The notes below the pieces were generated by a model, which worked only from the letters and a program-made list of their open reading frames with translations, did not search any database and was not told the DNA's origin. The position numbers and the translations under genes were made by a program. Below are positions 44,260 through 54,122 of a stretch of DNA of 64,000 nucleotides, in pieces; position 1 is the stretch's first letter, and each line of letters opens with the position of its first letter. Source of the stretch: an uncultured Bacillota bacterium. GTDB taxonomy: Bacteria; Sysuimicrobiota; Sysuimicrobiia; Sysuimicrobiales; Segetimicrobiaceae. Location: assembly GCA_963804645.1 (NCBI GenBank), contig CAWDRG010000017.1:192001-256000 (forward strand), in the 5' to 3' direction.

Positions 44260-45255
44260 CTACCGTCCCACGAGCTTCGGCTCGCCCCAGCACGCGGTCG
44301 CGCCGGCGCTCCCGCCGCCGGGCATCCCGTGCGTCTCGACCTCCAGCGTCAGGGCGCGCGCCCGCTTGAGCGGCACGCGCAGCGCCACGGCGGGATCTCC
44401 GGCCCGGAACGTGTGCCCGGGGTAGACGAGCGTTCCGTCGGCGTACACCCGGAACGTCGCCGCGACGGTAGGCGCGGTCCCGTCCGGGACGCCGATCACC
44501 GCGTCGAACTCGTCGTACTGCGCGTCGAGGTCGTACACCACCTGCACGCGCCCCTCGGTGGGAAACACGAGCAGGCCCCCGCCGAGGAGCCGGCCCGCGA
44601 TCGCCACCGCCTTCGTGACGTAGCTGAACCGGTATCCATCCGGCACCAGGGAGGCCACGCGCGCGTCCCCGAGCGGGGTCACGGCGCGTTCGGCCGGAGG
44701 CACCTTGGCGCTCAGCGGGACGGCCGCGGCCCCGTCACCCAGCATCCGCGCGACCGCGTCGTCGACGGGCACCGTCGTCTGGGCCGCCCCGACGATGTCC
44801 GCGGTCGCGGTGCTCAGCACCTTGGCGGTGATGCGCACGGAGTCCCCGAGGTTGACGGTGGTCCCCGTCACCAGCACGTCCGCGCCGGCCAGCTGGCCGA
44901 GCTTCTGTACGGCCCCGGGCTGCGTGACGCCGACGACCATCAGCTTCTGCTCCTCGATGATCTTCGAGAGGTCCTGGCGGTCCAGCACGCGCAGGTCGCC
45001 GCCCGAGAGGACGAGCGCCGTGGAGAGCTCCTCGGCCACGAACCGTCCGAGATCGTTGACGCGGCCGTCCAGCGACCCAAAATCGACGACGGCCAGCCGC
45101 TTCCGGCCCAGCTTCTGCACCTGAGGCACGATCTGCGCCGCGAGCTCCTGAATCCCGGCGTCGAGGCTGTCGGCCGCGCGCGCCATCGGAGACGGCAGCA
45201 CCAACAGCAGGACGATCGCCGTGGTGCCCGCGACCCGCAGCACCCGACCTCTCAT
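44260..45255 (-). CDS. Exported FlgO/CsgG-like domain protein with a C-terminal NPCBM/NEW2-like domain
   Basis: Signal peptide; LAVVDF..LDG...LGRFVAEEL...VLDR..L..II.EQ...LGQLAGADVLVTGT (CsgG/FlgO pattern); YDL..QYDEFDAVIGV.D...F.VYADG...WGEPKL (NPCBM-like). Confidence 0.75.
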   Translation of the reverse strand: MRGRVLRVAGTTAIVLLLVLPSPMARAADSLDAGIQELAAQIVPQVQKLGRKRLAVVDFGSLDGRVNDLGRFVAEELSTALVLSGGDLRVLDRQDLSKIIEEQKLMVVGVTQPGAVQKLGQLAGADVLVTGTTVNLGDSVRITAKVLSTATADIVGAAQTTVPVDDAVARMLGDGAAAVPLSAKVPPAERAVTPLGDARVASLVPDGYRFSYVTKAVAIAGRLLGGGLLVFPTEGRVQVVYDLDAQYDEFDAVIGVPDGTAPTVAATFRVYADGTLVYPGHTFRAGDPAVALRVPLKRARALTLEVETHGMPGGGSAGATACWGEPKLVGR

Positions 45256-45354
45256 ACCTCACCTCCGAACGGCGGATGTCCCGCCGTCTCGGCGCTCCGC
45301 CCGGTCACGCGCATGCCGACCGGCCGGTCGCCCTCAGCTCACGGCTCGTGCGCA

Positions 45355-46505
45355 TCAGCGCGGCGCGAGCGACTCCAGCACCACCCGGTTCGCCTGGGCC
45401 GCCACCACCCGCAGCCCGAGCGCGGTCAGGCGCGGCAGCAGCGCCTGCGGGGGAAACTCGACCGCACGTCGATGACGCCGATCCCGGCCTGATACGCCCG
45501 GACGAACGCCTGTCCCGCGACCTCGCGCAGCGCGCGGACCTGCGCGAGCACTTTGACGAAATGCGCGTAGTCCGGCGCGAACACGATCACCTGCGTGTCG
45601 CGCGATCCGTCGACGAGCGGCGAGTACGCCCGCGCGACCGTCCACACGAGGCCGTCGCCGGCCTGATCGGCGGCGTCCTGGCTCGCCTGCCGCAGCGCCG
45701 CGGGAGCGGTCAGGTGCAGCGCCCGCCCCGCCTGGGTGCCCGCGTACAGCGTCTGGCCGGTCGCCCCCACGGTGACCCGCAGCCGAAGCGTCGCCTCGGC
45801 CGACTGGAGGGACTGGTCGCCGATCTGCACCATGCCCAAGGAGTCCGCGTCGACGGTGCCGGCCACGAGGATGTCCGCGGTCGCGGCGAGCGCGGTGAGC
45901 AGGCTCAAGCGTCGGTCGTCCTGCGTCGCCAGGCGCGCGACCGTGCCGGACGGCACCGGCCCCGGCTGGACGACATGATAGCCGGCCGCCGCAAACCGCC
46001 CGGCGAGCTCGGTCTCCGCCGCCGCCGCATACGCGGCCGGGCCGTCGACCGCCACCGTCACGGTGGGATGATCCATCAGCCCGATCAGGACCGCGAGGGC
46101 CTCCTGATCGCCCGTGAAGTCACCGTCCACGACGACCGCCCGGATCTGCACCCGGTACAGGCGGCCGTCGCGGTGCTCGTTCACGACCGTCAAGGATTGG
46201 ATGTAGCCCGACGCGTTCGCCGTGATCTCGTCGATCAGCACCTGAAAGTTCTCGACGGTGGTGTGCGAGCGCACGGAAACGCCCGCCGCTTCCAGCGCCA
46301 GGCGGTAGGCGTCCACCACCGCCTCGTCCCGCGCCTGGGCGAGATCGCCCCCGACGATCGCCCCGACGCCCTCCACCGTCACGGTCTTGCCCGAGTCGGC
46401 GGAGCCGGAGTCGTCGGCGGACTGGCCGTAGCCCGCGCCGACCGCCGAGCCGAGCAGCAGCACCGCCGCGGCCGCGATCGAGAGTGCACGCATCCCCGCG
46501 CGCAT
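45355..46505 (-). CDS. Exported protein with a FlgT N-terminal-like domain and a frameshift near the 3' end (about 45451)
   Basis: Signal peptide; VTVEGVGAI.GGD..QARDEA..DA.R.ALE.AGV.V.S.T.VEN....D.I...ASGYI. One missing base in the G5 run at 45449-45453 shifts the last ~30 codons. Confidence 0.7.
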
Positions 46506-46516
46506 CCCAACCACCG

Positions 46517-47446
46517 CTACCGATTCACGACGATATCGACGTGCAGCTGATCGAGAAAGTGCCCCTGCGCGTTCGCCGCCTGGATCTTGGCCGCGTCCTC
46601 GTCGCTGATGATCACGTCGGTCTTGAAGTTCGACTCGGGCGGCCCGCTCACGCCCACGGCGTGGACGATCAGCGGATTCGACCCCGCGCGGCTGTCCGGA
46701 CCGCCGGCCGTCGCGGCGTATCCGACGATGCCGTAGTCGTCGGCCAGTTCTTGGCTGATCTGCCCGGGCTTCCACCAGCCGCGGCCGTACACCACCTGGC
46801 CCTCCGGCGTCAGCACCGCGGGGCTCATCGACCGATCCAGGTGGACCCCGTCCACCACCACGATCAGGCCGGTAAACGCGCCCGGCGCGGCCGGCGGCGA
46901 GACGGGCCGCGAGTAAAACCCGGGCCGCTGCGGCACGGTCGGGGTGATGCGCGGCGGTACGGGCACGGGCACCGCGGGCGGCGCCGGGGCCACGTAGGGG
47001 ATCACGGTCTGCCCGAGGCCGTTCGGCCCGTAGAGGGGCATCTGGACGGTGACCGCGTAGCGGCCGTCCGCGTACTGCTGCTCATCGAGAATCGTCGCGT
47101 CGCGGACGACCCCTTCGACCTGCGTCTCGATCGTGTCCCACTTCACGCCGGCCTGCTCCACCGACGTCTTCGATCGCACGGTCACGTCGAGCGACGCTTC
47201 GAGCAGAGCCCGGTACGCGTCGACGATGGCCGCGCGCCGCGCCATGAGCGCCGCCTGCGCGTCGGAGGTGGCGCCGGCCGGCGGCGCGCCGAACCCCTGC
47301 GCCTTGATCACGCTCGCCTGCCAGTTCGTCCAGGCGTTGGGTCCAAACTGCTCCACGACCGGGGACGGCTGAGCCGTCACCCCTGATGCCCCCATGGCGA
47401 GCACCACGACACCGAGCACCACCGCGCGAGCCGTCTTCCACATCAT
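46517..47446 (-). CDS. Exported LPP20/FlgP-like family protein
   Basis: Signal peptide; NW....I.A.G.GAPP...A.LMARRAAIVDAYR.LLE...V.G.VR.A; FTGLIV.....L..SMSP.V. Confidence 0.7.
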   Translation of the reverse strand: MMWKTARAVVLGVVVLAMGASGVTAQPSPVVEQFGPNAWTNWQASVIKAQGFGAPPAGATSDAQAALMARRAAIVDAYRALLEASLDVTVRSKTSVEQAGVKWDTIETQVEGVVRDATILDEQQYADGRYAVTVQMPLYGPNGLGQTVIPYVAPAPPAVPVPVPPRITPTVPQRPGFYSRPVSPPAAPGAFTGLIVVVDGVHLDRSMSPAVLTPEGQVVYGRGWWKPGQISQELADDYGIVGYAATAGGPDSRAGSNPLIVHAVGVSGPPESNFKTDVIISDEDAAKIQAANAQGHFLDQLHVDIVVNR

Positions 47447-47513
47447 GCCGTTCCACCCCCTAGTGCGCTTGCGGATCCACACGTCGTGTGGCCGTCGTAC
47501 GCGCCGTACATCC

Positions 47514-48137
47514 TCAGTAGCACCACTGGCTCCACGTGCGGTCGCGGCACCTGCGGTACGGACCATACGTGAGCATCGGGCGAGTCGGCCCGAGGTAGGG
47601 CCGATACGAAGGCTGGTAGTACATGCGCCGGTACTGCCCGTAGTACGGATAGCGGTAGAACGCTCCGTCCGGCCCTTGGACGAGGAGATACGGGAGGCCG
47701 CCGACCATGATCGTTCCCAACACGGTGCCGGCCATCGCCGGCGCCGGACCGGACCCCTGGGGCGGGGCCGGCGTGTACGGGGCCGGCGTGTACGGCACGG
47801 GCTGGGGGGCGGCGGGCGGGGTGTGCACGGTCAGGTGGGCGATCATGAACTGGCCGCTCACCGGCACGAGCGCGACGGTGGCCGGCGCGCCGATGTACGG
47901 CTGCAGCGAACAGAGCGGCTGCGGCTGGTCGTCGACGTCGATCACGGTCGCGAGCGTCGACTGCAGCACGGTCGTGCCGGCGCCGCTCTTGAGGGTCATT
48001 TGCTGGGCCGCACAGTCGACCCCCTGAATGGTGCCGTCGATCTGCAGGCGCGCGGCGGGCTGCGCCGCTCCGGACGAGGCGACACCGAGGAGTGTGAGCA
48101 GGACGATCAGGAGCGTCGACCACGAACGCATACGCAT
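47514..48137 (-). CDS. Exported hypothetical protein
   Basis: Signal peptide (MRSWSTLLIVLLTLLGVASSGAA), small beta-rich domain with two Cys, Pro-rich linker (PYTPAPYTPAP), Tyr-rich C-terminus. Confidence 0.7.
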   Translation of the reverse strand: MRMRSWSTLLIVLLTLLGVASSGAAQPAARLQIDGTIQGVDCAAQQMTLKSGAGTTVLQSTLATVIDVDDQPQPLCSLQPYIGAPATVALVPVSGQFMIAHLTVHTPPAAPQPVPYTPAPYTPAPPQGSGPAPAMAGTVLGTIMVGGLPYLLVQGPDGAFYRYPYYGQYRRMYYQPSYRPYLGPTRPMLTYGPYRRCRDRTWSQWCY

Positions 48138-48262
48138 CCCCCCGGTGCGTGGTACGGTCTGAGCGTGCTTCTGCGGTACCGTGCGTTGACGCTGATAGCG
48201 CGCGGTGGACGGGAAAAGTTCCCGGACGTCGGCGGCGCCCGTCGCTCGACCCGGCCGCACGC

Positions 48263-48268
48263 TATAAT
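48263..48268 (+). promoter_or_regulatory. Consensus -10 box TATAAT; near-leaderless promoter of the DUF47-wHTH gene
   Basis: TATAAT lies 10 nt before the ATG at 48279, with no SD sequence between them. Confidence 0.6.
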
Positions 48269-48278
48269 AAGAAGTGTC

Positions 48279-49223
48279 ATGAACTTCGAGCGTACTGACG
48301 GCCCGGCTCCCACCGACGCCCCCGAATTCGATCTCCTGCAGGATCTCACCGGGACGATCCGCCAGGCCGCCCGCACCCTGGTGTCGGCCCTGCAGGGCAA
48401 GTCGTCCTTCGTGGACGCCTGGCCGCCGATTCGCGACCTCGAGCACAAGGGCGACGCGATCGCGCGCGACATGTTCGAGATGCTCGCCGCCGGACGGGCC
48501 AGCACCACGCCGACGGACACCCTGCAGGCGCTGACCGGCAAACTCGACGATGTGCTCGACGGCGTCGAAGCGGCCGCGGCGCGGCTCGCGATCTACCGGA
48601 TTCGCCGCGTGTTTCCGCCGGCGCTCGAACTCGGCAAAATCGTGCTCGCGTGCGCCCTGGAGCTTGAGGCGGCGGTCGGCCGCGTGCACCGCATGCAGGA
48701 CGTGTTCCCCCACACGCGGACGCTGCATCTCCTCGAGAATCAGGGCGACGACGTGCTCCGGGACGCGGTCGGCCGCCTCTTCGCCGGCCGCGCGGGCGCG
48801 AAAGAGATCATCAAGTGGAAGGACATCTGCGAGACGCTCGAGGACAGCACCGACCGCTGCGAGGACATTGCGAACATCCTCGAGACGCTGCTGCTCCAGA
48901 CGGGCACGGAGCACCTGCTGGCCGTCCACGGCCTGGCGATGGACGTCGAGCATCACGCGGTGACGGCCGGCGGCATCCCGGTGCCGCTCTCGGCGAAAGA
49001 GTTCGGGCTGCTGCACCTGCTCCTCCGCCACCAGGGCAAGATCGTCCGGCGCGAACGGCTGCTGCGTGACGTGTGGGGCGACGACTACTTCGGCGACACC
49101 CGGACGCTGGATACGCACATCGCGTGGCTGCGGAAGAAGATCGAGTCCACCGGCGACGTGCGGATCGTCGCCGTCCGCGGCATCGGGTACCGGCTCGACG
49201 CCCACCCGCCCGCGGCGCGGTGA
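48279..49223 (+). CDS. Fusion of a DUF47/PhoU-like domain and an OmpR/PhoB-type winged-helix DNA-binding domain
   Basis: Uninterrupted ORF. N-terminal IRDLEHKGD, LDDVLD, LENQGD, IIKWKDICETLEDSTDRCEDIANILE (DUF47). C-terminal LSAKEFGLL, RERLLRDVWGDDYFGDTRTLDTHIAWLRKKIE, VRGIGYR (Trans_reg_C). No receiver domain. Confidence 0.9.
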   Translation: MNFERTDGPAPTDAPEFDLLQDLTGTIRQAARTLVSALQGKSSFVDAWPPIRDLEHKGDAIARDMFEMLAAGRASTTPTDTLQALTGKLDDVLDGVEAAAARLAIYRIRRVFPPALELGKIVLACALELEAAVGRVHRMQDVFPHTRTLHLLENQGDDVLRDAVGRLFAGRAGAKEIIKWKDICETLEDSTDRCEDIANILETLLLQTGTEHLLAVHGLAMDVEHHAVTAGGIPVPLSAKEFGLLHLLLRHQGKIVRRERLLRDVWGDDYFGDTRTLDTHIAWLRKKIESTGDVRIVAVRGIGYRLDAHPPAAR

Positions 49224-49225
49224 CG

Positions 49226-49280
49226 CTTCACGCACGCTTGAGACTCACCTCACCTTTCGGCGCGCCCATCCCGGTACGAT
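49226..49280 (+). promoter_or_regulatory. Putative mgsA promoter with three 11-bp-period direct repeats (PHO-box-like) and a TACGAT -10
   Basis: CTTCAC (49226), CTTGAG (49237) and CCTCAC (49248) at exact 11-bp spacing; TACGAT at 49275-49280. Confidence 0.45.
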
Positions 49281-49327
49281 ACTCGCGATCCACCGGACCG
49301 TCCCTGTGGTGGACCCGGAGGATGCGC

Positions 49328-49798
49328 GTGGAGACGTACCGGCGGGTGCGCATGGGCCGCGAGAAGCGCATCGCGTGCATTGCGCACGATAACAAGAAGG
49401 CCGAGCTGGTCGAGTGGATGCGCTTCAACCGCGGATCCCTCGAGGAGCACTTCCTCTACGCCACCCGCACGACCGGCGCGCTGATTATCCGCGAACTCGA
49501 CCTGCCCGTCACGACGTTTCACAGCGGCCCGCTCGGCGGCGATCTGGAGATCGGCGCCAGGATCGCCAGGGGCTCGATCGATTTTCTGATCTTCTTCTGG
49601 GACCCGCTTGAGCCGATGCCGCACGACCCCGATGTGCGCGCGCTGCTGCGGATCGCCGCGGTCTGGAATGTGCCGGTCGCGTGCAACCGGGCGTCCGCGG
49701 ACTTTATGGTCTCGTCGCCGCTGATGCGCGACGCGTACGATCGCCTGATCCCGCCCTACCCCGACGCCGAGGAGGTGCCCCGGGTCGCCGCCGGCTGA
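49328..49798 (+). CDS. mgsA: Methylglyoxal synthase
   Basis: IACIAHDNKK, ATRTTG, SGPLGGD.EIGA, FFWDPL..MPHDPDV.ALLRIA, ACNRASAD. GGAGG RBS before the GTG at 49328; alternative ATG at 49352. Confidence 0.97.
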   Translation: METYRRVRMGREKRIACIAHDNKKAELVEWMRFNRGSLEEHFLYATRTTGALIIRELDLPVTTFHSGPLGGDLEIGARIARGSIDFLIFFWDPLEPMPHDPDVRALLRIAAVWNVPVACNRASADFMVSSPLMRDAYDRLIPPYPDAEEVPRVAAG

Positions 49799-49951
49799 CT
49801 CCACCATCCCGCGGGCGGTGACGTGAGGACACGCCGTCGCGGCGCACGTGCGTTCCGACCTCGCCGCACCCTGATCGCTCCGCCGACGTCTCGGTGGCCC
49901 CCCGCCGGGTACCGCCGCGGGCCCACGTCCGGCTCAAAGAGGGCATCGGAG

Positions 49952-49983
49952 ATCCCATGGCAAAATGTGCTCCAACATGGGAT
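49952..49983. promoter_or_regulatory. Inverted repeat ATCCCATG-N16-CATGGGAT upstream of the ABC operon
   Basis: Perfect 8-bp arms at 49952-49959 and 49976-49983. Confidence 0.45.
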
Positions 49984-50028
49984 GCCGGACGCATCCCCTC
50001 TCCACACTGCGACAAAAGGGGTGGGTCA

Positions 50029-51177
50029 ATGAATCCAGGTCAGCACCCGCGGCTCACACGACGGTCACTGCTGAAGCGGGGAGGCGCAGCGGGCACCGCG
50101 CTCGGGCTCGGCGCGCTCGGAGGACTGGCCGCTCGAACGCCCAACGCGTGGGCGGACCTCTCGATAGCGAACGGGCGCCCCGTGGACATCACCGAGTTCA
50201 TCTGGATCGGGGGCGGCCAAGGCGTCGTCCCGCGAGAGGTCAAGACGGCCTACCAGAACGCTCACTCGAACGTCAACATCGAACTGTACGAGGGGACGAA
50301 CGCCGTCACGTATCCGAAGATCGTCGCGCAGCGGCAGGTGAACCCCAATAACCCGCTGATCAACTTCGGCTTCTTCAATACCGACGCGCAGACCAAGGGC
50401 GAGCTCGATGGGCTGTGGCTCCCCCTGGATCCCAAGCGGATCCCCAACCTCGCGAACGTCTATCCCGGGTATCACCGCCCGAACGGCACCGGGATCGGCT
50501 GGGGGTACAGCGCGATCGGGATCTTGTACAACAAGAAGCTGGTCAAAGAGCCGCCCACGAGCTGGAACGACATCTTCGCGCCGCGCTTCAAGGGCAAGGT
50601 GATGCTGTTCGATTACGCGTGGGCCTTCAACGGGCTGCTGGGCGTCGCCTACGCGGACGGCGGGAGTGCCAAGCAGATCGACGGCGCGTTCGAAAAGTAC
50701 AGCAAGGCCGCCGCGGACGGTCAGTTCCTGGCGCTGTTCACCACGAATGATCAGGTCAAGGACGCGCTCGCCCGCGGGGACGCGTTGATCGCGCCGTACT
50801 TCACGAGCTTCGCGATCACGTGGAATCAGGAGAGCCCGAACGGCGCCGGCCCCTTTGGGTACGCGCTGCCGAAGGAAGGGGTGGTCGCCTTCAGTTACTT
50901 CTTCAACATCATCAAGGGCTCGAGCCCGGATCAGATCGAGGTCGCGTCCGACGTCATCAACACGTACCTGTCCACGGCGACGATCGAGCGCTACTGCAAC
51001 CTCACCGCGACCGCCCCGGCGGTGAAGGGGGCGAAGCTCCAAGCTTCCCTCCAGGCCGAACCCGCGTTCCAGCCGTCGGTCGCCGAGAAGGCGATTCAGC
51101 CGGACTGGGCAACGGTCAACGCCCAGAACAATGCGTGGAAGCAGCGCTGGGATCGTGAAGTGAAGGCCAAGATGTAG
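50029..51177 (+). CDS. ABC transporter substrate-binding protein (PotD/PotF-like), Tat-exported
   Basis: TRRSLLK signal; LDPKRIPNL, GILYN...V.EPPTSWND, PKEG, W..RWDREV. Confidence 0.9.
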   Translation: MNPGQHPRLTRRSLLKRGGAAGTALGLGALGGLAARTPNAWADLSIANGRPVDITEFIWIGGGQGVVPREVKTAYQNAHSNVNIELYEGTNAVTYPKIVAQRQVNPNNPLINFGFFNTDAQTKGELDGLWLPLDPKRIPNLANVYPGYHRPNGTGIGWGYSAIGILYNKKLVKEPPTSWNDIFAPRFKGKVMLFDYAWAFNGLLGVAYADGGSAKQIDGAFEKYSKAAADGQFLALFTTNDQVKDALARGDALIAPYFTSFAITWNQESPNGAGPFGYALPKEGVVAFSYFFNIIKGSSPDQIEVASDVINTYLSTATIERYCNLTATAPAVKGAKLQASLQAEPAFQPSVAEKAIQPDWATVNAQNNAWKQRWDREVKAKM

Positions 51178-51328
51178 CGATCGCGTTCGCGCCCGCGCTC
51201 GTCTCCGTCCGGGTCGGCCACCGCCGCCCCGGACGGAGCGGGAGGGGCGGACTCCCCGCCGTGTCACCGCTGCCCGCACGACCCTGTTCGACCGTCCTCG
51301 CCGGCCGTTCCCCCGGGGGCGTCCCCGC

Positions 51329-52426
51329 GTGAGCACCGACACGGGGCCCGGCCCCGCGGTCGAACTGCGCCACGTGCACAAGTGGTTCGGCACCGTGCAC
51401 GCCGTGCGGGACGTCACGTTGACAATCCGGGAGAACGAGTTTTTCTCGCTCCTCGGTCCCAGCGGGTGCGGGAAGACGACGGTGCTGCGCATGATCAGCG
51501 GATTCGAGGCGCCGAGCCAGGGCGACCTGTACCTCGAAGGCCGGCTCGCGAACACCATTCCCCCCTACCGCCGGGACACGAACCTCATCTTTCAGCATCT
51601 CGCCCTGTTTCCGCACCTCGACGTGTACGAGAACATCGCCTTTGGGCTGCGCCTGCGGCGTCTGAGCCGTGAGGAGATCCGGCGGAAGGTGCACGAGATT
51701 TTGGAGCTGGTGGATCTCACCGGCTACGGTAGGCGCCGGATTCACCAGCTGAGCGGGGGGCAGAAGCAGCGGATCGCGATCGCGCGCGCGCTGGTGAACG
51801 AACCCGCGGTGCTGCTCCTGGACGAACCGCTGGGCGCACTCGACCTGCGCCTGCGGGTGCAGATGCAGCTCGAACTGAAGGAGATCCAGCACCGCGTCGG
51901 CACGACGTTCGTCTACGTCACGCACGATCAGACCGAAGCCCTCACGATGTCGGACCGCATCGCGGTCATGCGCGACGGGATGGTGGAGCAGATCGGCAGC
52001 GGCCGCGACGTGTATGAGCGGCCGCGCACCCGGTTCGTCGCCGCGTTTCTCGGCGACAGCAATCTGCTGGAAGGGGAAGTCGACGCGCGCGACGCCGCGC
52101 GCACGACACTGCGCACCCGAGGGGCGCGCGTCGTCGGGCCGGGCGGCACGGACGCCGCGCCCGGCACCACGGCCTACCTGTGCGTGCGCCCGGAGCGGCT
52201 CCGTCTGTTCGCGGCCGGCGAGCCGCCGGCGGGATACGAAAACCACCTCGAGGCGCAGGTGCGCGACGTCACGTTCAAAGGCGCCGTGATCGAGTACCGA
52301 CTCGCCGCGCCGAGCGGGCTCGCGCTGATCGCGCAGGCGCACGCTGACGGGACGCCGGCCGTCGAGCGGGGCGCCTCGGTCACCGCCGCGTGGCGCCTGG
52401 ACGACGGCGTGGTGCTGACCGAATGA
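51329..52426 (+). CDS. ABC transporter ATP-binding protein (PotA-like)
   Basis: GPSGCGKT, LSGGQKQR, LLLDEPLGALD, YVTHDQ, C-terminal TOBE-like domain. Confidence 0.96.
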   Translation: MSTDTGPGPAVELRHVHKWFGTVHAVRDVTLTIRENEFFSLLGPSGCGKTTVLRMISGFEAPSQGDLYLEGRLANTIPPYRRDTNLIFQHLALFPHLDVYENIAFGLRLRRLSREEIRRKVHEILELVDLTGYGRRRIHQLSGGQKQRIAIARALVNEPAVLLLDEPLGALDLRLRVQMQLELKEIQHRVGTTFVYVTHDQTEALTMSDRIAVMRDGMVEQIGSGRDVYERPRTRFVAAFLGDSNLLEGEVDARDAARTTLRTRGARVVGPGGTDAAPGTTAYLCVRPERLRLFAAGEPPAGYENHLEAQVRDVTFKGAVIEYRLAAPSGLALIAQAHADGTPAVERGASVTAAWRLDDGVVLTE

Positions 52427-53310
52427 CCACCGACGCGACACCGCGCACCCCGCGCGGACAGGCCCTCGTGATCCCGGCGCTCCTTGGGCCGGCCATCGCG
52501 TTCATCGTGGCGCTACTCCTGTCGGCGCTGGCCATTATGTTCGTCAACAGCGCGTACCACTACACCGGGACGCACGTCGAACCGCGCGTGACCTTCGACG
52601 CGTATCGGCGGTTCTTCACGGATCCCTTCTACGCGAGCGTCGTGTGGCAGGAAGTGCGCCTCGCCGGCCTCGCCACGATCGTGTGTCTCGTCGTCGGCTA
52701 TCCCACCGCGTACGCCATCGCCAAGATCCGGAAGACCGGCTGGGTCATCGCCGCGTACGTCCTCGTGTTCTCCCCGCTGCTCACCAGCAGCATCGTCCGA
52801 GCCTACGGGTGGTTCGTGATCCTGGAGCGCGGCGGGCCGGTGAACTGGCTGCTGCTGCGGCTGCATCTCGTGTCGGCGCCGGTCCGGCTGATCTTTAACT
52901 TTACGGGTGTGGAGATCGCGCTCATCCACGTGCTGCTGCCGTTCACCGTGTTTCCGATCCTGAGCATCCTGCTCCGGACGGATCCGGCGCTGCGGGAAGC
53001 CGCCGCGGACCTGGGCGCGACCCGCATGCAGACGTTTGTCCGCGTCACGTGGCCGCTGTCGTTTCCCGGGCTCTACGCGGCGGCGCAGCTCACCTTCGTC
53101 CTCGCGATGAACGCGTACGTCACCCCGCAGCTCCTCGGAGGCGGCCGCGTGCAGGTCCTGCCGCTACTGATCTACCAGGACATCTCGGACCTCAACTGGC
53201 CGCTCGCGTCGGTCGAGGCGATCGCGCTCATTGCCCTTGTGTGGATCACGATGCTCGTCTCCAACCTCCTGTGTCGCCGCCGTCTCGCGACCGTGGGAGA
53301 TCGTGGATGA
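52423..53310 (+). CDS. ABC transporter permease (PotB-like)
   Basis: GYPTAY, IVRAYGW, EAAADLGA, TPQLLGG. Confidence 0.94.
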   Translation: MTTDATPRTPRGQALVIPALLGPAIAFIVALLLSALAIMFVNSAYHYTGTHVEPRVTFDAYRRFFTDPFYASVVWQEVRLAGLATIVCLVVGYPTAYAIAKIRKTGWVIAAYVLVFSPLLTSSIVRAYGWFVILERGGPVNWLLLRLHLVSAPVRLIFNFTGVEIALIHVLLPFTVFPILSILLRTDPALREAAADLGATRMQTFVRVTWPLSFPGLYAAAQLTFVLAMNAYVTPQLLGGGRVQVLPLLIYQDISDLNWPLASVEAIALIALVWITMLVSNLLCRRRLATVGDRG

Positions 53311-54122
53311 CCGGGGGGCGCCGCGATCCCGTCGCGATCACGCTGTGGGTCGTCCTCGGACTCGTCGGCGTGTACATGCTCGCGCCGCTCGCGTTCGTCG
53401 TCGTGGACTCGTTCAACCCGTCGACCTACGGCGAGTTCCCCCTGGCCGGCTTCACCCTGCACTGGTACACGAACGCCGCCGCGGTGCCCGAGTTCCGGAC
53501 CGGGCTGGCGAACTCGCTGGTCGTCGCCGTCGGCGCCACCGTGGTGGCGATCGTCTTGGGCACGCTCGCGGCGTACGGGCTCGCGCGCTATCGCTTCCGG
53601 GGGCGCGAGTGGGCAGGGTCGTTCCTGCTGCTGCCGATCATCGTCCCGGCCATCGTGTTCGGGGCGGCGCTCTTCTTACTGTACATCCGGATCGGACTAT
53701 ACGGGACCCGCACCGGCTTGGTCCTCGGACACGCGCTGCTGGGGCTCCCGTTCGTGATGTCGATCGTCGCGGCGAGCCTGCAGACGCTCGGCCGCGAGTA
53801 CGAGGAAGCCGCGATGGACCTCGGGGCGAATCCCTTCGTCACGTTCTTTCGGGTGACCATTCCCTCGATCCGGCCCGGCCTCATCGTCGGCGCGCTCTTC
53901 GCGTTCGTCACGTCATGGGACCAGGTCGACGTGTCGCTGTTCCTGACACGGCCGCGGAACAACACGCTGCCGATCGCGATGTTCAATTACGAGCAGAACT
54001 ATCAGGACCCGACGCTCGCGGCGCTCTCGACGGTGCTGATCGGGTTCGCAGTCATCCTGGTGCTGCTCGCCGTGTCGGTCCTCAAGACCCAGGAATACCG
54101 GCGGCTGGTCGAGCGCCGGTAG
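53307..54122 (+). CDS. ABC transporter permease (PotC-like)
   Basis: GFTLHWY, LGTLAAY, EEAAMDLGA, FVTSWD, TLPI. Confidence 0.94.
   Translation: MTGGRRDPVAITLWVVLGLVGVYMLAPLAFVVVDSFNPSTYGEFPLAGFTLHWYTNAAAVPEFRTGLANSLVVAVGATVVAIVLGTLAAYGLARYRFRGREWAGSFLLLPIIVPAIVFGAALFLLYIRIGLYGTRTGLVLGHALLGLPFVMSIVAASLQTLGREYEEAAMDLGANPFVTFFRVTIPSIRPGLIVGALFAFVTSWDQVDVSLFLTRPRNNTLPIAMFNYEQNYQDPTLAALSTVLIGFAVILVLLAVSVLKTQEYRRLVERR

Follow-up and report, generated by a model that had tools for sequence, protein, structure and literature searches.

The window considered here, that is, the whole 64,000-nucleotide stretch that was analysed (GCA_963804645.1, contig CAWDRG010000017.1, positions 192,001–256,000, forward strand; its host genome is labelled G000 below), carries two codirectional genes separated by a gap of 104 bp. 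The first codes for a 314-residue protein in which a PhoU_div (DUF47) domain is fused to an OmpR/PhoB-type winged-helix DNA-binding domain (hereinafter, the fusion), the second codes for a methylglyoxal synthase (MgsA), and the gap between them holds a PHO-box-like array of direct repeats (Table 1). The comparisons presented below suggest that the fusion is probably a one-component activator of the Pho type, for which mgsA would be a lineage-specific target in this genome.

Table 1. Features at and around the fusion gene and mgsA (positions in the window)
Feature	Position	Strand	Basis
TATAAT, −10 hexamer of the fusion gene	48263..48268	+	sequence; ends 10 nt before ATG
Fusion regulator gene, DUF47(PhoU_div)–winged helix, 314 aa, P0001	48279..49223	+	Pfam, AlphaFold2, Foldseek
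PhoU_div/DUF47 domain, residues 16–206, proposed sensor or docking module	48324..48896	+	Pfam; phmmer to 3l39
OmpR/PhoB-type winged-helix DNA-binding domain, residues 234–306	48978..49196	+	Pfam, NCBIfam, PDB sequence matches
Putative PHO-box-like operator, three direct repeats, 11-bp period, cores TTCAC, TTGAG, CTCAC	49224..49258	+	matrix, shuffles, congeners
Fourth unit slot, degenerate, GGCGCGCCCAT	49259..49269	+	matrix score −19.7; keeps array in phase with the −10
TACGAT, −10 hexamer of the mgsA promoter, no −35	49275..49280	+	sequence; promoter scan; phased TAnnnT in 21/22 orthologous loci
GGAGG Shine-Dalgarno of mgsA, 6 nt before GTG	49317..49321	+	sequence
mgsA, methylglyoxal synthase, 156 aa, P0002, one of two copies in the genome	49328..49798	+	NCBIfam; alignment to 1b93
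NPCBM + CsgG/FlgO-like protein	44260–45255	−	
Two FlgT_N/LPP20-like proteins	45426–46775 and 46517–47566	−	
Proline-, tyrosine- and glycine-rich protein, no Pfam match	47514–48134	−	

The fusion gene runs from an ATG at 48279 to a TGA at 49221–49223. In Pfam comparisons, its product matches PhoU_div at the N-terminus (PF01865; 37.2 bits, E 2.5e-9, cut-off 24.4) and Trans_reg_C at the C-terminus (PF00486; 91.5 bits, E 3.6e-26, cut-off 26.2), and no part of it matches the receiver domain (PF00072). The phospho-acceptor aspartate of a receiver is lacking, and six long helices precede the winged helix in the AlphaFold2 model (40 family members; pLDDT 90.3, pTM 0.81). By sequence, residues 11–207 align in phmmer with PDB 3l39, a putative PhoU-like phosphate regulatory protein (E 7.5e-19), while the best PDB matches of the winged helix are two phosphate regulators, RegX3 (2oqr, 3.2e-21) and PhoB (1gxp, 2e-18). 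The top NCBIfam model is that of PhoB (TIGR02154), which scores 76.6 bits against a cut-off of 296.2 and is covered over model positions 128–226 only. Foldseek relates the N-terminal part to 3l39 (TM 0.88, normalised to the target) and also to 2olt and 2iiu, and the C-terminal part to the effector domains of PhoP, PhoB, RegX3 and YycF (TM 0.80–0.91 for PhoB/PhoP DNA-binding domains; 0.83–0.87, normalised to the target, for 1gxp and 2pmu), with no solved chain spanning both parts. A homodimer prediction with two copies scored 0.00, a value that gives no verdict and counts neither for nor against dimerisation, and a look-up in the ESM Atlas returned short Trans_reg_C clusters only (0.78–0.81).

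This architecture defines a sizeable family: 1526 proteins were found at E ≤ 1e-3 among 8000 scored candidates, and all 120 family matches listed carry both PF01865 and PF00486. Where members bear a name, it is "DUF47 family protein" or "OmpR family regulator", and the titles and abstract openings turned up by a full-text literature search describe no DUF47–winged-helix regulator. The recognition-helix residues are invariant in 40 family members, as is the loop before that helix (W266, G267, D269–G272) among family members. Many orthologous loci lack a Shine-Dalgarno sequence and have a TATAAT, TATACT or TATGCT hexamer 8–10 nt ahead of the ATG; on this basis, the fusion mRNAs are probably leaderless or near-leaderless, with a leader of about 2–4 nt. 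No strong repeat array was found upstream of the fusion gene in the window, where a single unit at 48183 scores 7.0. In a few genomes, the gene is itself preceded by a TT[C/G]AC array (L034, L036, L040, L052 and G001:C1:767244-767270), suggesting autoregulation in those cases.

The downstream gene can be assigned with confidence, MgsA scoring above the cut-offs of NF003559 (198.2 bits against 84) and of the equivalog-level model TIGR00160 (168.7 against 146.9). It aligns to E. coli MgsA (1b93, chain residues 10–144) with the AHD..K, GGD and WDPL..PHDPD motifs kept, and retains equivalents of the catalytic residues H19, D20, K23, D71, D91, H98 and D101. Of two possible starts, the ATG at 49322 was rejected and the GTG at 49328 kept, given the spacing from GGAGG and the onset of conservation among three congeners. 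Two mgsA copies are present in each of G000, G067 and G079. The second copy of G000 (C11:81900-82298, minus strand; L086) is 64% identical and sits between GH15 glycoside hydrolase and M20 peptidase genes. A tree of 24 MgsA sequences unites the window's copy with those linked to the fusion in G069 and G067 (support 100/100). The C11 copy joins that of G070 among unlinked copies, in a clade of weak support (80/74), and no clear order emerges among the deeper branches. Phosphate is known as a strong inhibitor of methylglyoxal synthase, and the methylglyoxal pathway is known to operate when phosphate is limiting (PMC8600716). No description of mgsA as a Pho-regulon gene appeared in the titles and abstract beginnings that were surveyed.

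A preliminary description of this DNA had named both genes as above, and had placed three 11-bp units right after the fusion stop, followed by a TACGAT −10 with no good −35. The units are there exactly as written, CTTCACGCACG at 49226, CTTGAGACTCA at 49237 and CCTCACCTTTC at 49248; shifted to the frame of the family consensus nnCTTCACnnn, they become CGCTTCACGCA, CGCTTGAGACT and CACCTCACCTT (49224–49256). The hexamer, too, is in place, and a sigma-70 consensus scan of the plus strand from 47900 to 50200 finds no promoter with a −35. In the same interval, including the stretch between the fusion gene and mgsA, no terminator-like site was found.

The significance of the array becomes apparent from its relatives. 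The comparison set comprises 94 genomes of the phylum, all belonging to one order and all metagenome-assembled, with a completeness of 59–100%; two of them, G025 and G017, are unpublished and were counted only in phylum-wide tallies. A full-length fusion, called at E ≤ 1e-100, is present in 46 of the 94, contig-end fragments in 6 and only a stand-alone DUF47 match in 7. Conservation of the 11-bp repeats, on which the preliminary description had made its proposal depend, is evident in the orthologous loci, which carry the same TT[C/G]AC arrays: two to five direct repeats with an 11-bp period and TTCAC or TTGAC cores, just after the fusion stop. Counting perfect TTNAC cores in the single best phased array per locus gives 32 TTCAC, 14 TTGAC, 3 TTAAC and 1 TTTAC. 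A TAnnnT hexamer follows the last core at exactly 10 nt in 12/22 loci and at 20–22 nt in 9/22, the window included; one truncated locus has none. In the window, the −10 sits 21 nt past the last core, which equals 10 nt plus one 11-bp unit, so that the degenerate fourth slot keeps the array in phase with the −10.

These comparisons were put on a quantitative footing with a weight matrix for the fusion-type 11-mer, built from 67 units of 19 orthologous loci, none of them from the window's genus. The window's units score 11.4, 4.6 and 2.2, a total of 18.2, and when G000 was scanned on both strands for three units at 11-bp spacing (10,615,502 positions), one site scored higher (30.0) and one other was tied (18.2), which places the mgsA site among the top four. 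When the 104-bp intergenic region was shuffled by mononucleotides 20,000 times, this total was attained only twice. Two congeners keep mgsA after the fusion, and comparison with them shows variable spacers but conserved cores (TTCAC, TTGA and CTCACCTT); the −10 is also conserved among the three congeners with mgsA, the fusion proteins of which are 78–80% identical. The preliminary description had called the repeats degenerate and the link to the regulator weaker than the fusion itself; the second and third units are indeed weak, but the array as a whole is stronger than was thought. Conservation, phasing and whole-genome rank support the view that the repeats are a real operator of the PHO-box type, which would stand in for the missing −35.

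The two other high-scoring sites of G000 might be further targets of the fusion. The top one (C9:1053521-1053553, minus strand; L056 6022-6054; score 30.0) lies before a glutamine-synthetase-like gene that is divergent from a PhnS-like binding protein, and a DNA search for it in the congeners gave partial matches only, in 2 of 6. The tied site (C17:410992-411035, minus strand; L057 4993-5036; score 18.2) precedes a PhnS2-like ABC transporter. When the simpler pattern TTSAC-N6-TTSAC-N6-TTSAC was applied to five fusion-only genomes, it gave 8 matches against 0 for the reversed control, three of them at fusion loci. The remaining five are ATTCAC-type arrays, one of which precedes a SHOCT-response regulator-kinase operon, and the bare pattern is therefore not specific and did not serve to enlarge the regulon. 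Triple ATTCAC arrays with an 11-bp period and a phased −10 are found before small SHOCT-domain genes (L102 and L105–L108, in G008, G001 and G077). Downstream of its SHOCT gene, G077 encodes an OmpR-type regulator and a HAMP kinase; these arrays are probably the operator of another two-component system.

The gene neighbourhoods of the fusion, tallied by combining gene places across genomes with Pfam checks, point to phosphate uptake. pstS lies downstream in 26 of the 46 genomes, directly and on the same strand in 23 and after mgsA in 3, and is divergent from the fusion in 2. PhoU is directly downstream in 4 genomes and another PBP_like_2 protein in 1; mgsA with no pstS seen after it occurs in 4 (three in the window's genus, and one on a contig that ends past mgsA), and nothing Pho-related or a contig end in 9. 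In total, mgsA follows the fusion in 7 of the 46, all from family f1: G000, G067 and G069 of genus g1, and G075, G076, G077 and G079 of genus g6, the last of these with a small LuxR-type ORF in between. The general conserved partner of the fusion is pstS, and the fusion–mgsA synteny anticipated in the preliminary description is confined to family f1. No kinase gene adjoins the fusion in the loci examined, and PstB and PhoU are encoded in the same operons as the fusion-linked pstS in relatives. DUF47 genes are usually paired with a gene for a Pit (PHO4) phosphate permease. In G000 (96.8% complete), PF01384 remains unmatched, and Pit was accordingly ruled out as a partner of the fusion's DUF47 domain.

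The linkage of mgsA to Pho loci extends beyond the fusion. The gene is present in 23 of the 94 genomes (26 matches), mostly of family f1 (15/22), and 10 of the 26 matches sit in Pho loci, 7 of these after the fusion. The other three are in G059, which has no fusion and shows a phoP-phoR-mgsA-pstS row; in G062, where some 1.5 kb and a gene for a low-molecular-weight phosphatase separate mgsA from the pstS downstream of it; and in G058, where a truncated mgsA remnant stands between a PF04185 phosphoesterase gene and pstS, in a row that begins with DUF47, phoP and phoR. A further mgsA remnant before pstS is visible by eye in G063. Thus, mgsA is better described as a Pho-linked gene of the family than as a fusion-specific partner. 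In genus g6, which has no PhoR/PhoP orthologue, the mgsA right after the fusion has its own strong array (TTCAC, TTCAC, TTGAC, then a −10 after 10 nt), and a further array belongs to pstS. Where genera lack the fusion, a phoP-phoR-(phosphoesterase)-(mgsA)-pstS row has a stand-alone DUF47 gene immediately ahead of it (L087, i.e., G058:C289:1-8500; G060:C38; G072:C28). Such a DUF47 gene immediately ahead of phoP-phoR-pstS is recorded for genera g2 and g5. The fusion could have arisen from this DUF47-phoP gene order, which sister genera retain, by loss of the receiver domain.

G000 also possesses a conventional Pho system. Its contig C9 (241000-259000; L064) holds a canonical cluster of pstS, a PhoB-like regulator, a PhoR/PnpS-like kinase, pstC, pstA, pstB, PhoU and a second PhoU-containing ORF, the regulator (hereinafter PhoP; C9:253567-254268) scoring 249.5 bits against TIGR02154. 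The 11-bp repeats of this cluster are of a different flavour, with TTAAC-type cores, and precede pstC (C9:251817-251849), phoP (254308-254351) and the gene for a CehA/McbA-like hydrolase (245430-245473); pstS of G000 similarly carries TTAAC-type rather than TT[C/G]AC units. Orthologues of PhoR (at least 59% identity) and PhoP (at least 73%) occur in the same 14 of the 94 genomes, all of them in genera g1–g5 of family f1. Outside these, the next-best PhoR match has at most 44% identity, and a second tier of PhoP-like regulators (59–63%) is found in 12 genomes of families f5 and f7, the best matches elsewhere being of paralogue level (at most 55%). The fusion and PhoR/PhoP coexist only in G000, G065, G067 and G068; the other 42 of the 46 fusion genomes have neither orthologue and still carry arrays before pstS.

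The two flavours separate in a consistent manner. Upstream of pstS in 18 loci, 15 of them from PhoR/PhoP genomes, the perfect TTNAC cores are TTAAC (25) and TTTAC (2), with TTCAC and TTGAC at 0; where PhoR/PhoP is present, the pstS arrays are TTAA-type throughout, which cannot be said of the mgsA site. When G000 was scanned with a TTAAC matrix derived from genera g2–g5, the best matches fell within the Pho cluster, ahead of pstC (28.3), of phoP and of the CehA-like hydrolase gene, and the units of the mgsA site scored 4.5, −0.6 and −6.6, against the 11.4, 4.6 and 2.2 of the fusion-type matrix. This supports an affinity of the mgsA site with the fusion-adjacent arrays of other genera rather than with the TTAAC arrays in the Pho cluster of the same genome. 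The recognition helices of the fusion (DTRTLDTHIAWLRKKIE) and of this genome's PhoP (DDRTVDVHVRWLRHKLQ) differ at four positions. The preliminary description had envisaged a kinase-independent mini Pho regulon; the receiver-less regulator and the 42 fusion genomes without PhoR/PhoP are in line with it, but G000 retains a canonical phoP-phoR cluster. Similarly, the genome scan that it called for places the mgsA site near the top along with two other sites, but the pstS of G000 has TTAAC-type units instead.

Taken together, these patterns suggest a regulator that is most likely of the PhoB type, operating without receiver or kinase and gated by a PhoU-family domain. In the mechanism that we favour, the helical bundle of the PhoU family would replace the receiver of a PhoB/PhoP-like response regulator and control the PhoB-type winged helix. 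The fusion would be transcribed from its own TATAAT and bind head-to-tail, probably as tandem copies, to the 11-bp direct repeats with the core yTT[C/G]AC. As these occupy the place of the −35, with the last unit slot 10 nt upstream of the TAnnnT −10, the bound protein would recruit RNA polymerase in the manner of PhoB (class II activation), with phosphate scarcity as the most likely trigger. The low-phosphate state would be reported by the PhoU-like domain, either through direct binding of phosphate or through contact with PstB/PhoU. Across most of the order, this promoter would drive pstS(CAB-phoU) without any PhoR/PhoP orthologue. In the window's genus, PhoR/PhoP with TTAAC boxes would have taken over pstSCAB, leaving the fusion with a small set of targets that includes mgsA and perhaps a few others. 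The target copy of mgsA would be the second, dedicated one directly downstream of the fusion, and its product would free phosphate from dihydroxyacetone phosphate (DHAP) while allowing lower glycolysis to bypass its phosphate-requiring step. That the fusion itself is the binding protein, that it activates, that phosphate is the signal and that the DUF47 domain senses it are the parts of this scheme that we infer; the comparisons themselves establish the domain architecture, the array with its statistics, the geometry of the promoter, the synteny, the complementary occurrence of PhoR/PhoP and the two repeat flavours.

A number of observations weigh against this scheme or limit its reach. The complete PhoR/PhoP pair of G000, its PhoP being of the same family, could also act at the mgsA site, which makes the conventional PhoP a serious rival binder; here, the fusion would be a second, parallel regulator, and it looks like the sole one only in other lineages. 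The two flavours of repeats are not exclusive: pstS arrays of genus g6 read TTAAC, TTAAC, TTGAC or TTAAC, TTCAC, with no PhoP orthologue found. In the congener G066 (L075; G066:C142:25400-27400), phoP is reduced to a frameshifted receiver remnant (residues 2–112), phoR is gone, pstC follows directly and the TTAAC repeats at pstS are kept; PhoR/PhoP seems to have been lost naturally in this genome, which retains the fusion. The fusion probably tolerates TTAAC. The window's own site could be decaying, in view of its weak second and third units and lost fourth slot, and 3 of the 6 congeners with the fusion have neither mgsA nor an array downstream (L029–L031). In the absence of a terminator between the two genes, read-through may contribute to mgsA expression. 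As other OmpR-family regulators in these genomes use similar 11-bp arrays (ATTCAC), the motif class alone cannot name the binding protein. Finally, the sites that trained the fusion-type matrix were picked by their adjacency to the fusion, and counts across related metagenome bins are not independent.

Among the alternatives, the one that fares best, albeit as an unlikely reading, is that the fusion binds the repeats but represses, or answers to a metal, polyphosphate or a glycolytic intermediate, in which case phosphate limitation would not induce mgsA. No ligand is known for DUF47/PhoU_div domains, arrays over the −35 region can also repress, and G000 already has PhoR/PhoP for its phosphate response; furthermore, a review states that the PhoB effector domain freed of its receiver binds DNA constitutively (PMC4415409). 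However, a −10 without a −35, with an array fixed 10 nt from it, is how promoters activated in the PhoB fashion are built; pstS is the main target, with PhoU retained in the same operons; and the invariance of the loop before the recognition helix also speaks against such a reading.

It is less likely again that the canonical PhoP binds the repeats ahead of mgsA as ordinary PHO boxes, with the fusion being unrelated or only modulating or competing. This draws on the presence of the PhoB-like regulator and its PhoR/PnpS-like kinase inside the pst cluster, on the kinship of the two PhoB-type winged helices (39% identical), on the row of G059 that joins mgsA to phoP and phoR, and on the generic nature of 11-bp arrays in the OmpR/PhoB family (PMC4415409). 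Against it stand the TTAA[C/T]-type cores of all 18 pstS loci, the TTAAC matrix, which finds the Pho cluster of G000 but hardly the mgsA site, and the TT[C/G]AC arrays that precede mgsA and pstS in the 42 fusion genomes devoid of a PhoR/PhoP orthologue. The least probable alternative, that the array is decaying, having been inherited from an ancestral fusion-[boxes]-(mgsA)-pstS promoter, and that mgsA is expressed mainly by phosphate-independent read-through from a constitutive fusion promoter, would accommodate the weak units, the unterminated 104-bp gap, the transfer of pstS to the PhoR/PhoP cluster in this genus and the loss of mgsA and array from three congeners, but it sits poorly with three cores and a phased TAnnnT that are conserved in three congeners despite diverged spacers and fusion proteins only 78–80% identical, with a site that is outscored once and tied once in all of G000, and with an mgsA that has its own Shine-Dalgarno and start codon.

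Returning to the fusion as a one-component activator, a broader reading, which we hold tentatively, is that it might be the master Pho regulator of most of the order. In such a system, a PhoU-family domain would directly gate a PhoB-type domain and would have displaced PhoR/PhoB, having probably originated from the fusion of DUF47 to an adjacent phoP with loss of the receiver, and mgsA would serve as a metabolic valve for the release of phosphate.

The remaining surroundings of the locus are of a different character. Upstream of and divergent from the fusion gene is a row of secreted or lipoprotein-like genes on the minus strand (44260–48134; Table 1). Downstream of mgsA, an ABC transporter is encoded on the plus strand (49894–54119), with an SBP_bac_8 binding protein, an ATPase with a TOBE_2 domain and two permeases; the binding protein has a twin-arginine-like signal, RRSLLK, and a probable start at 50029. 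This transporter was considered as a phosphonate module and rejected, its similarity to PhnS being weak (31.5 bits against a cut-off of 395), its context generic and its operon not preceded by a repeat array.

It has long been an open question how the phosphate status is read by cells and what part PhoU-family proteins play in it, and to our knowledge the phosphate readout passes through a histidine kinase in every system studied. If the proposed mechanism is true, PhoU-like bundles would be primary modules of the intracellular phosphate signal, and a Pho regulon could run without phosphotransfer. A soluble 314-residue protein that joins a PhoU-like to a PhoB-type domain would reduce the problem of the phosphate signal to one polypeptide and one DNA site, the operator and the layout of its promoter being well delimited. 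It would also offer a natural case of a one-component system replacing a two-component one, with both retained in one genus. The link between the methylglyoxal bypass and phosphate is, as far as we know, recognised only as an effect at the level of the enzyme; the recurrence of mgsA in Pho loci under two regulators suggests that in this lineage the bypass may be transcriptionally programmed into the phosphate-starvation response.

The fusion can be placed alongside several known systems, each of which it resembles in part. Like PhoB of E. coli, PhoP of B. subtilis and Streptomyces and RegX3 of mycobacteria, it has a winged helix of the same family, these being its best matches, and its putative sites are 11-bp direct repeats at the place of the −35, about 10 nt from the −10, with pstS as the main target. 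According to a review, PHO boxes are 11-nt direct repeats to which effector domains bind in tandem, the regulator contacting sigma, and the Streptomyces unit GTTCACC resembles the TT[C/G]AC core of the fusion arrays (PMC4415409). The same text calls Pho control two-component "in all cases" (PMC4415409). Unlike these regulators, the fusion has neither a receiver nor its phospho-acceptor aspartate, it has no partner kinase in 42 of the 46 genomes, and it carries a PhoU-family bundle in the place of the receiver. With PhoU and the stand-alone DUF47/PhoU_div proteins (3l39, 2olt, 2iiu), it shares the fold and family of its N-terminal 200 residues and a gene position among pst/pho genes. It differs from them in covalently carrying a transcription-factor domain, the known members being without a DNA-binding domain and acting, where studied, through protein contacts.

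A further parallel may be struck with the receiver-less regulators of the OmpR family, namely ToxR and CadC, which are membrane one-component systems, and the SARP/AfsR proteins of Streptomyces, of which AfsR binds PHO-box regions. These likewise have an OmpR-type winged helix driven by a non-receiver sensor within one polypeptide; their sensors are periplasmic or of the BTA/NB-ARC kind, whereas that of the fusion would be a cytoplasmic PhoU-like bundle, and we know of no member of either group that acts as a primary pst regulator. The enzyme encoded next to the fusion, for its part, is like the known MgsA proteins in matching the equivalog models and conserving the catalytic motifs. Unlike in the methylglyoxal bypass as it is known, control here would also be transcriptional, exerted through a PHO-box promoter and a dedicated second copy of the gene.

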